Origin: Candidatus Woesearchaeota archaeon
GTDB taxonomy: Archaea > Nanobdellota > Nanobdellia > UBA10117 > GCA-020343615
DNA: 64,000 nt
Direction: 5' to 3'
Assembly: GCA_020343615.1 (NCBI GenBank)
Contig: CP070803.1
Span: 855,273-919,272, forward strand
The position numbers were made by a program, and so were the translations under genes. The stretch's first letter is position 1, and the number at the start of each line of letters is the position of its first letter. Below, piece by piece: positions 3,672 through 62,792 of this stretch. The notes beneath the pieces were generated by a model, which was not told the DNA's origin, ran no database searches, and saw only the letters and a list, made by a program, of their open reading frames with translations.

Positions 3672-3760
3672 TTCACCTCCATTCACTAAGAGAATATAAT
3701 TCTATAAATTATTTTTGTTTGATAACAAATTTTAAAATATTTTACTTACTAAAAGTAATT

Positions 3761-5882: not shown

Positions 5883-6623
5883 TTAAAAAATTTTAGAAGT
5901 TTCAGTATTTAGATTATTATATAAATTAAAAATAATACTTTTTCGTTCTTTAAGATTTGATCTTGGAAGTCCTTTTCCTATTTTTTTCCAAATGTCTATT
6001 TTAGAAGTATGTTTCGGATTGTTAAATCCTATCTCTTTAATCCATCGATTTATGTCTTCTTTTTTGTATAATACGAGTGAATAGACTGGATTTAAATCTC
6101 GTTTACCTTTGTATGGTTTTTTAAAATATGGTCTAAATCCTAATTTTTCAGATATTTGTTTTATCTGAAATATAAGATTTTTTGAAGTACTACTAATTTT
6201 TATTCTTGGTTGCGTGTGTTTACCGGAAGTACTTTTATTGAAGTAAACTGTACCATCTGTATCAAATATTCCTCGCAATACATTTCTAATTAAAGATTCT
6301 GTCATAAGTCTTTCTGGTATTTCTATATTCGTTTTCTTACCGGGTTTCAAACCAATATTTCTTAAGTAATCTACAACTGCTTTATTAAATATTTTAAATC
6401 CGTAGACTCCATTTTTTGAATAATCTCTTCCACTTAATTTATAATCCAATAAAGGTTTTCCAATAGTTTTGTTAAACAAAGGAATTACTGTTTTATCATA
6501 GTACTCTCTTTCTTCTATTGAATCTCCACATACTGAAAGTTCACTATATCTTTTGTTTACGCTAATGCAACCATCTCCAATACATATTCCTATAAACTCT
6601 GCCAAATCTTTGGTTAGTTCCAT
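5883..6623 (-). CDS. LAGLIDADG homing endonuclease (double-motif, free-standing)
   Basis: 246 aa with two LAGLIDADG-type motifs (FIGICIGDGCIS and LRGIFDTDGTVYF). The ATG lies 6 nt after the tRNA-Leu 3' end on the same strand. Confidence 0.85.
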   Translation of the reverse strand: MELTKDLAEFIGICIGDGCISVNKRYSELSVCGDSIEEREYYDKTVIPLFNKTIGKPLLDYKLSGRDYSKNGVYGFKIFNKAVVDYLRNIGLKPGKKTNIEIPERLMTESLIRNVLRGIFDTDGTVYFNKSTSGKHTQPRIKISSTSKNLIFQIKQISEKLGFRPYFKKPYKGKRDLNPVYSLVLYKKEDINRWIKEIGFNNPKHTSKIDIWKKIGKGLPRSNLKERKSIIFNLYNNLNTETSKIF

Positions 6624-6629
6624 TTAAAA

Positions 6630-6769
6630 TGCTGGGAACCGGATTCGAACCGGCGAAGACACTAAGTCACAGGATGACTTACCACCTTAATGAGCGGTCT
6701 TAAGTATGGCAGATGTCATAAAATTTTTATCGACATCTCCTGCCCCTTTGACCACTCGGGAATCCCAGC
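6630..6769 (-). tRNA. tRNA-Leu (anticodon UAA) with two introns (33 nt at 6706-6738, 23 nt at 6676-6698)
   Basis: GCTGGGA/TCCCAGC acceptor, A73, 3-bp D stem with GAGTGGTCAAA loop, long variable arm, GCCGG-TTCGAAT-CCGGT T arm. After removing two BHB-bounded introns the anticodon arm is CAGGA-CTTAAGA-TCCTG. Confidence 0.8.
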
Positions 6770-8285: not shown

Positions 8286-8957
8286 ATGGTAAAAATAATA
8301 TTCCTTGGACCTCCTGGTTCCGGCAAAGGGACCTACTCTTCTAGAATCGGACCAGAATTAGTAATACCGCATATATCTACAGGTGACTTACTAAGAAACG
8401 AAGTTAAGGGAGATAGTGAGCTAGGGAAAAAAGCTGCTGAGTACATGAATAAAGGAAATTTAGTTCCTGATGATTTGGTCATTGAAATTCTCAAAAAAAG
8501 AGTAGAGAAACCTGATTGTGAAAGAGGATTCATACTTGATGGTTTTCCAAGAACTCTTAACCAAGCAAAAGCATTAGACAAAATAACAAACATAGATATG
8601 GTAATTAATCTGTATTTGCCTGATGATATACTCATTACTAAATTATCAGGTAGAAGAGTTTGTAGGAACTGCGGAGATAACTACAATGTCACAGATATTA
8701 AAGACGATGAAAGAGGGATATACATGGCTCCACTTTTACCAAAAAAAGAAGGAGTATGTGATAAATGTGGTGGTGAGCTTTACCAGAGAGATGATGACAA
8801 ACCTGAAGTTATTAAAGAAAGATTAGAAGTATACTATCAAAAAACAAAATCTCTAATTGATTATTACACCGAAAAAGGAATTTTAAAACAATTTAATGTT
8901 AATGCAGTTCCAGATATAATGGTCCCGAAAATTTTAAAACTTATACGTTCTGGGTAA
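8286..8957 (+). CDS. adk: adenylate kinase (long, zinc-lid type)
   Basis: P-loop GPPGSGKGT, GFPRT, and lid with CRNCG...CDKCGG cysteine pairs. Confidence 0.9.
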   Translation: MVKIIFLGPPGSGKGTYSSRIGPELVIPHISTGDLLRNEVKGDSELGKKAAEYMNKGNLVPDDLVIEILKKRVEKPDCERGFILDGFPRTLNQAKALDKITNIDMVINLYLPDDILITKLSGRRVCRNCGDNYNVTDIKDDERGIYMAPLLPKKEGVCDKCGGELYQRDDDKPEVIKERLEVYYQKTKSLIDYYTEKGILKQFNVNAVPDIMVPKILKLIRSG

Positions 8958-8964
8958 ATTCTAT

Positions 8965-9090
8965 GGGGCCGTGGGGTAGTTTGGACCATCCTCCCAGCCT
9001 CGAGTGTATATTTATCAATAATTACACTCGCTGGAACGGGGACGGATTGCCGGAACGCTGGTGACCCGAATTCAAATTTCGGCGGCCCCA
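8965..9090 (+). tRNA. tRNA-Pro (anticodon GGG) with two introns (37 nt at 9000-9036, 14 nt at 9042-9055)
   Basis: GGGGCCG/CGGCCCC acceptor, A73, TGGGGTAG D-arm pattern, CCGAA-TTCAAAT-TTCGG T arm. Two nested BHB motifs give the anticodon arm CCAGC-C(C/U)GGGGC-GCTGG. Confidence 0.7.
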
Positions 9091-9154
9091 TTTTTTAAAA
9101 GCTAAGACATAGAAAGATTTATATAGTGTTACTAGATAGTGATTACTAGTTAAA

Positions 9155-11618: not shown

Positions 11619-11714
11619 CCCGGCTTAGCTCAACTTGGCAGAGCGTGCGGCTGTAGATTGCTTATCAGCGTAGCTGAAACCGCAAGGTTCCTGGTTCGAT
11701 TCCGGGAGCCGGGA
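11619..11714 (+). tRNA. tRNA-Tyr (anticodon GUA) with 22-nt intron (11657-11678, position 37/38)
   Basis: C1-G72 pair and A73 as in archaeal tRNA-Tyr, GCTC/GAGC D stem, TGCGG..CCGCA anticodon stem, loop CTGTAG|intron|A, CCTGG-TTCGATT-CCGGG T arm. Confidence 0.85.
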
Positions 11715-62607: not shown

Positions 62608-62690
62608 GCCGTGGTGGCAGAATGGCTAATGCGCTCGATTCGAGATCGGGTGTCCTTACGGACGTGCAGGTTCGAGTCCTGCCCACGGCG
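62608..62690 (+). tRNA. tRNA-Ser (anticodon CGA)
   Basis: GCCGTGG/CCACGGC acceptor, G73, 3-bp D stem, CTCGA-TTCGAGA-TCGGG anticodon arm, long variable arm GTCC-TTAC-GGAC, GCAGG-TTCGAGT-CCTGC T arm. Confidence 0.9.
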
Positions 62691-62792
62691 CCTTATAAAG
62701 CGTTAGAGGTCGCTTAAGTCTAATAATTAACGGTGTTGAATTCTAATAATCTAATCAAAAATCTTTTATTGTTTATTACCGATTAATCTACT

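Follow-up and report, generated by a model that had tools for sequence, protein, structure and literature searches.

The 126-nt gene at positions 8965-9090 (+) of the window, by which we mean the whole 64-kb stretch of DNA that was analysed, is in all likelihood a functional DPANN tRNA-Pro(GGG) gene whose transcript would mature in two protein-catalysed rounds of BHB splicing, the order of which would be obligatory. The host sequence is AT-rich (32.6% GC) and belongs to a DPANN archaeon. The gene has the layout GGGGCCG TG GGGT AGTTTGGACCA TCCT C CCAGC (58 nt) GCTGG TGAC CCGAA TTCAAAT TTCGG CGGCCCC A, i.e., a class I tRNA body in which the two halves of the anticodon stem lie 58 nt apart instead of 7, with 51 surplus nucleotides inside the anticodon arm. 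The first-pass annotation had described the locus in these terms, as a 126-nt class I gene with a Pro-like acceptor and 51 extra nucleotides, and every element that it quoted was found where it had been placed. The features of the locus, with exon and intron boundaries as predicted here, are as follows.

8932-8939 (+): TATA-like TTTTAAAA, candidate archaeal promoter, 26-33 nt 5' of tRNA position 1 and within the 3' end of the adenylate kinase ORF
8965-9090 (+): complete tRNA-Pro(GGG) gene, three exons and two introns, CCA not encoded
8965-8999 (+): exon 1, tRNA positions 1-32 (acceptor 5' strand, D arm, CCAGC 5' strand of the anticodon stem, C32)
9000-9036 (+): intron 1 (37 nt at 32/33), made up of an 8-bp hairpin whose 14-nt loop is AT-rich, followed by CTGG and AA
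9037-9041 (+): exon 2, the 5-nt micro-exon CGGGG (C33, anticodon G34 G35 G36, G37)
9042-9055 (+): intron 2 (14 nt, ACGGATTGCCGGAA) at the canonical 37/38 site, with a CCGG that pairs with C32-C33-G34-G35
9056-9090 (+): exon 3, positions 38-73, running from C38 and the GCTGG half of the anticodon stem through a 4-nt variable loop and the T arm to the acceptor 3' strand and A73
9091-9096 (+): T6 run directly after A73, candidate archaeal oligo-T terminator
8989-9042 (+): BHB-1 fold of the primary transcript, from the MFE fold and the BHB scorer

The spacing of TTTTAAAA agrees with the placement of archaeal TATA boxes, and T-rich trailers are also present in orthologues of the tRNA-Pro gene.

Splicing motifs were sought with a BHB scorer of our own, in which a strict motif consists of a 4-bp central helix and 3-nt bulges, each cut after its second base. 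Applied to the primary transcript, it finds a single strict BHB within the anticodon region, BHB-1, composed of a 5-bp outer helix (TCCTC, 8989-8993, with GGGGA, 9038-9042), a 4-bp central helix (CCAG, 8994-8997, with CTGG, 9031-9034), the 5' bulge CC^T (8998-9000), the 3' bulge AA^C (9035-9037) and an 8-bp inner helix (CGAGTGTA, 9001-9008, with TACACTCG, 9023-9030). The CTGG that closes the central helix belongs to intron 1 and pairs with anticodon-stem positions 27-30. Two opposed 3-nt bulges, CCU and AAC, with a 4-bp helix between them and flanking helices of at least 2 bp make this an hBHBh' motif as defined in PMC3978253. BHB-1 is also part of the MFE structure that RNAfold gives for the 126 nt (-56.6 kcal/mol, z = -3.65), so that both the scorer and the fold bear out the earlier proposal that 37 nt (9000-9036) would be removed at 32/33. 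Since the outer helix draws on the 3' strand of the D stem and on position 26, the D stem must presumably open for BHB-1 to form. In the nearest-neighbour model a second register of BHB-1, in which the central helix has 5 bp and the bulge is CUC, is slightly favoured (-19.9 versus -18.9 kcal/mol) and would move the 5' cut; of the two registers, only the 4-bp one is a canonical substrate.

The second motif, BHB-2 (CCAGC-CCGG-GG^A ... CCGG-AA^C-GCTGG), was seen by the scorer only in the 89-nt singly spliced intermediate, whose MFE structure holds its central helix, its 3' bulge and the anticodon stem, and it is predicted to remove 14 nt (9042-9055) at position 37/38. Its central helix is built from C32, the end of exon 1, and C33-G34-G35 of exon 2. 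In the primary transcript the counterpart of this helix, CUCG/CCGG, is paired at three of four positions and the G37^A site is hidden within the BHB-1 outer helix, and for these two reasons intron 1 would have to leave first. The first-pass annotation had held that BHB-2 cannot exist before the first splice, and this stands for the motif as such, which is absent from the primary transcript and present in the intermediate, but not for its central helix, three quarters of which can already pair beforehand. The BHB of the last intron thus depends on prior removal of the earlier one, which is how nested introns are defined in PMC3978253. BHB-2 has a 4-bp central helix, a 5-bp outer helix and the canonical AAC 3' bulge; because its inner helix has only 2 bp and encloses a 3-nt loop, the relaxed BHL/HBh' form describes it best, effectively a bulge-helix-loop, and it would need an endonuclease that tolerates such substrates. 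According to PMC6379350, full-length pre-tRNA can be cut at a BHL located at 37/38.

Exactly one BHB route through the locus leads to a 7-nt anticodon loop, and it is the route that had been proposed from the sequence at the outset. Counting any strict BHB in shuffled sequence proved a weak test (6.7% of shuffles hold one) and was replaced by a test of the full route, in which 10 of 3000 shuffled 58-nt inserts (0.33%) yielded any route at all.

The maturation that these motifs suggest would proceed in the following way. The primary transcript would have no normal anticodon arm; instead, UCCUC-CCAG (the D-stem 3' strand, position 26 and positions 27-30) would pair with GGGGA, formed by exon 2 and the first base of intron 2, and with CUGG, the 3' end of intron 1, to give the strict hBHBh' motif. 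EndA would cut at CC^U and AA^C, between the second and third bases of each bulge, releasing 37 nt, and RNA ligase would join C32 to C33. The anticodon stem CCAGC/GCUGG could then form, and the now contiguous C32-C33-G34-G35 would pair with the CCGG of intron 2, creating a second fold with a 4-bp central helix, the canonical AA^C 3' bulge and the GG^A 5' site in a loop (bulge-helix-loop). A second round of cleavage and ligation would remove 14 nt at 37/38 and leave a 75-nt tRNA with the loop C32-C33-G34-G35-G36-G37-C38, to which CCA would be added after splicing. That the gene is transcribed, where and in which order the transcript is cut, that the exons are ligated, that the tRNA is aminoacylated and that the mature RNA keeps C33 are all inferred from sequence.

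The product of this route assembled in silico is a 75-nt tRNA with the anticodon arm CCAGC-CCGGGGC-GCTGG and C33, and ARAGORN calls it tRNA-Pro(ggg), 75 nt. With the introns removed, it shows a 7-bp acceptor stem, a D arm, a 5-bp anticodon stem with a 7-nt loop, a short variable loop and a T arm. It also carries G35, G36, G37 and A73, which we take to be the proline identity elements.

The strongest evidence for this product comes from relatives. The nearest homologues of the adenylate kinase (Adk) of the window are labelled Aenigmatarchaeota, and the gene order Pur_DNA_glyco, Adk, tRNA, 154-aa protein, 472-aa protein is conserved among relatives. Downstream of Adk, the following loci carry intronless tRNA-Pro(GGG) genes (identity is that of Adk to the window protein; the anticodon arm is given as stem, loop, stem).

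L045, tRNA at 1273-1347: Adk 73%, CCAGC CCGGGGC GCTGG, C33
L004, tRNA at 3673-3747: Adk 70%, CCACC CCGGGGC GGTGG, C33
L042, tRNA at 1209-1283: Adk 77%, CCAGC TTGGGGT GCTGG, U33
L003: Adk 75%, CCAGA TTGGGGT TCTGG, U33
L043, tRNA at 1372-1445, and L044, tRNA at 1374-1447: Adk 70%, CCAGT CTGGGGG GCTGG, U33

The predicted product is identical at 69-74 of 75 positions to the syntenic 75-nt tRNA-Pro(GGG) genes of relatives. The best match is L045 (74/75), from which it differs at one D-loop base, a single mismatch in exon 1, and with which it shares the whole anticodon arm; the micro-exon equals positions 33-37 of the L045 and L004 genes, and the T arm and acceptor of exon 3 are the same as in orthologues. 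In a structure alignment of eight orthologues 95% of the cells are paired, with compensatory changes in five pairs; for the anticodon stem all cells are paired across the eight genes, with compensatory double changes in three of the five pairs. Because this covariation fixes the register of the anticodon stem, the C takes position 33 in a loop of 7 nt. The base at this position does not follow from orthology alone, since the sister lineages L042, L003 and L043 carry U33; in the window C33 depends on the predicted junction, whereas in the intronless C33 orthologues it is read directly from DNA. We consider it highly probable that ordered two-step splicing yields a mature tRNA-Pro(GGG) with the loop CCGGGGC. 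The loop, GGG anticodon, G37 and C33 predicted for the RNA by the first-pass annotation are thus supported by the L045 match and by the C33 loops encoded in relatives.

Other variation was seen in the same clade. The loop CTGGGGG of L043 and L044 has a potential C32-G38 Watson-Crick pair together with a U31·G39 closing pair, which makes it another unusual variant, and positions 32, 33 and 38 shift jointly across the clade (CC..C, UU..U, CU..G). In L001 (3663-4133) and L002 (Adk 73%) the syntenic gap holds a 106-aa membrane-like ORF and no tRNA-Pro, so that even within the close clade not every genome has its tRNA-Pro downstream of Adk; around the more distant adenylate kinase homologues P0008, P0009 and P0016 the synteny differs and no tRNA was found.

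Introns 1 and 2 are absent from all sampled tRNA-Pro orthologues, and two metagenome scans, one with a long-gap pattern for intron-containing relatives and one with a 3'-side pattern for relatives with C33 or intron 2, gave 0 matches; the covariation evidence thus concerns the helices of the mature tRNA, as distinct from those formed by the introns. The rule by which the cuts were placed can be examined on two other disrupted tRNA genes of the window.

6630-6769 (-): tRNA-Leu(TAA), 140 nt, two introns, overlooked by ARAGORN and Rfam and found by the T-arm/acceptor scan
11619-11714: tRNA-Tyr(GTA), one 22-nt intron at 37/38

In tRNA-Leu a strict BHB (GGCA/TGCC, 7-bp inner helix) is predicted to remove 33 nt at 30/31 (6706-6738), and exon 2 supplies A31. 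A second strict BHB at 37/38 (CTTA/TAAG, outer helix 6 bp, inner helix 5 bp) forms only after the first splice and would remove 23 nt (6676-6698). The resulting 84-nt product is called tRNA-Leu(taa) and aligns gap-free with its syntenic Leu(taa) counterparts in L001 and L004, which are intronless, and has the same core GGA CTTAAGA TCC. This fit bears out the cut rule, which the first-pass annotation had said to give perfect loops for tRNA-Leu and tRNA-Tyr. The tRNA-Tyr intron follows the same AA^N 3'-bulge rule, with a relaxed BHB whose central helix is paired at three of four positions, with a U·U mismatch, and whose 3' bulge is AA^A. It is kept in L004 (5778-5874) with one substitution, and this conservation indicates that it is old. 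The Pro and Leu introns, for which the sampled relatives are intronless, look like recent, lineage-specific gains; the lineage of the window would then offer a recent-looking gain of BHB introns outside Crenarchaeota that could serve the study of how such introns spread. Directly downstream of the disrupted tRNA-Leu lies a free-standing 246-aa ORF with a LAGLIDADG_3 domain (5883-6623 (-), Pfam E = 2.7e-12). It is not intron-encoded, since the same adjacency is found in L001, where the tRNA is intronless.

In one rival reading the same two introns are removed but both cuts of intron 1 fall 1 nt further 3' (CU^C ... AAC^G), keeping U33 in the loop CUGGGGC. U33 is near-universal (PMC5041475), the sister orthologues have it (L043 reads CUGGGGG), and the 5-bp register of BHB-1 puts the 5' bulge at CUC and hence the 5' cut after U. 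The corresponding 3' cut, however, lies outside the canonical 2|1 position of the bulge, no BHB of such geometry was found, and shifting the 5' cut alone would give an 8-nt loop. The 2|1 rule was validated on tRNA-Leu and tRNA-Tyr of the same genome, the match to L045 drops from 74/75 to 73/75, and CUGGGGC occurs in none of the orthologues, while CCGGGGC is a recurrent genomic loop. We therefore regard the shifted cuts as very unlikely, and this scheme (scheme X) was rejected for its lack of a supporting BHB geometry and its 73/75 match. Another scheme, giving CUCGGGC and a Pro-CGG anticodon (scheme Z), was rejected as well; it too has no supporting BHB geometry and matches L045 at 72 of 75 positions.

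Default ARAGORN called four other tRNAs in the window and none at 8965-9090, and Rfam gave no match at the unspliced 8965-9090 at either gathering or permissive thresholds, which is expected given the 51 extra nucleotides. A scan for T-arm and acceptor complementarity recovers both the tRNA-Pro and the tRNA-Leu genes. With the Rfam tRNA model RF00005 (cmscan) the U33 orthologue L042 scores 47.2 bits; the same model gave no match at E<=10, possibly as an effect of its filters or of the score itself, for the intronless C33 orthologues L045 and L004, both of which ARAGORN calls tRNA-Pro(ggg). At the gathering threshold on whole relative loci, Rfam missed all tRNA-Pro genes. It may be that tRNA-Pro genes with the CCGGGGC loop are under-annotated, perhaps systematically. 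Automated pipelines would report this genome as having no tRNA-Pro(GGG), and probably no tRNA-Leu(TAA) either, which would give a wrong picture of its translational capacity. DPANN genomes are known to be rich in disrupted tRNA genes and to have predicted tRNA sets that are incomplete, and gaps of this kind have been flagged (PMC5829648).

The failure of default ARAGORN and of Rfam to recognise the locus, and the intronless state of sampled relatives at the same site, are also what one would see if the locus were a decaying pseudogene, a former tRNA-Pro broken by insertions and neither expressed nor spliced. This is improbable to a high degree, for the exons are intact and 74/75 identical to L045, the precise BHB route is absent from 99.7% of shuffles, the tRNA-Leu of the window shares the architecture, and the gene has a TATA-like element on one side and a T-run on the other. 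Moreover, CCT accounts for 265 of 510 proline codons in window ORFs of at least 200 aa and is the commonest of them, and no other tRNA-Pro was found within the 64-kb window by ARAGORN or by the acceptor/T-arm scan. Because a GGG anticodon would be expected to read CCU by G·U wobble, tRNA-Pro(GGG) probably serves this commonest proline codon.

The presence of C33 in the predicted functional tRNA-Pro(GGG) is unusual. U33 is conserved in elongator tRNAs, with exceptional cases, and the eukaryotic initiator tRNA-Met is a C33 case (PMC5041475); C33 is further described in tRNA-Cys(GCA) of Sulfolobales (PMC7668247) and in yeast tRNA-Leu(GAG), where it causes no substantial functional impairment (PMC13492127). 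No description of C33 in an elongator tRNA-Pro was found in the literature searched. A genome scan with the shared T-arm/acceptor pattern returned 37 loci, mostly from Thermoplasmata and one from Aenigmatarchaeota, of which 13 are GGG isoacceptors. Eight of the 13 read CTAGC ATGGGGA GCTAG, and the other five, intronless genes of Thermoplasmata MAGs (L012, L014, L028, L032 and L034), read CTACC CCGGGGC GGTAG. For two of these five MAGs a second tRNA-Pro, with a UGG anticodon, was found (L038 beside L014 and L039 beside L032), and in both the C33 gene is the sole GGG isoacceptor seen within reach of the search pattern. Several of the five MAGs come from hypersaline sediments, and their phylum is unrelated to DPANN; L004 and L012 share the D-loop AGCTTGGCCCA. 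A scan of viral contigs for the C33 loop pattern gave four chance matches in GC-rich DNA, none of them a tRNA.

It is conceivable, although on balance we doubt it, that CCGGGGC is a recurrent archaeal variant of tRNA-Pro(GGG), which arose or spread in at least two phyla, rather than a tolerated defect, and that it works either without the U33 U-turn or through a hitherto undescribed C33-to-U33 editing activity. If so, the presumed decoder of the commonest proline codon of the window would be a recurrent C33 variant. A genome-encoded C33 in an elongator tRNA that probably reads this codon, seen in two archaeal phyla, offers a natural test of the need for U33 in the anticodon U-turn.

Splicing could also proceed as proposed and C33 then be deaminated to U33 by C-to-U tRNA editing, giving a normal U-turn. 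Such editing occurs in archaea at another position, C8, where it is carried out by CDAT8 in Methanopyrus, and this counts in favour of the idea. The alternation of C33 and U33 among close orthologues fits tolerance and correction alike. Natural C33 tRNAs are, however, tolerated unedited, as in yeast tRNA-Leu(GAG) (PMC13492127) and tRNA-Cys(GCA) of Sulfolobales (PMC7668247), and no evidence for such an enzyme or event was found here, so that editing of this tRNA appears very improbable indeed. The weakest reading, a single 51-nt intron at 37/38 that would yield a tRNA with a CGA (Ser) anticodon, is what intron-aware ARAGORN (-i) reports (tRNA-Ser(cga), i(40,51)), just as the first-pass annotation had warned of naive single-intron readings, and it can lean on the anticodon stem and on the 3/4-paired CUCG/CCGG helix beside the AAC bulge in the primary transcript, but it was rejected as having practically no chance of being right, since the central helix contains a C·C mismatch and the motif lacks both an inner helix and a defined 5' bulge, the class I body with A73 aligns with tRNA-Pro orthologues, the syntenic orthologues are all Pro(GGG), and ARAGORN finds a genuine class II tRNA-Ser(CGA) elsewhere in the window, at 62608-62692.

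The natural C33 tRNAs known so far (Sulfolobales Cys, yeast Leu, initiator Met) resemble the present case in that a C replaces the near-universal U33, is encoded in the genome and is apparently functional. They differ in that the tRNA here would be a tRNA-Pro(GGG) with C32 and C38 in the loop CCGGGGC, and in that C33 recurs in DPANN and Thermoplasmata and alternates with U33 among close orthologues. The disrupted tRNA genes of ARMAN-2 and Nanoarchaeum likewise belong to DPANN, have non-canonical and multiple introns, and were overlooked by standard predictors, leaving apparent gaps in tRNA sets (PMC3239211, PMC5829648); the locus described here differs from them in that only cis-splicing would be involved, with no split or permuted halves.

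The closest parallel lies in Crenarchaeota, where, in the account given by PMC3978253 (citing Sugahara 2007 and Tocchini-Valentini 2009), nested introns are known whose last BHB depends on a preceding splice; PMC6379350 also summarises tRNAs with several introns and relaxed motifs. As these reviews present them from Sugahara 2007/2008 and Tocchini-Valentini 2009, the multi-intron pre-tRNAs of Thermoproteales and other Crenarchaeota likewise have two BHB introns per gene, the last BHB appearing after the earlier removal, with one intron at a non-canonical (here 32/33) and one at the canonical position (37/38), and with a strict hBHBh' motif accompanied by a relaxed BHL. Compared through the same reviews, the present gene differs in that its host is an AT-rich DPANN archaeon, in that the whole anticodon would lie on a 5-nt micro-exon, and in that its introns appear recent and lineage-specific. 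The mechanism is therefore already known and the locus is a fresh example of it in a DPANN lineage; its notable features are the 5-nt micro-exon with the entire anticodon and the C33 loop, and the recurrent C33 is the part worth following up.
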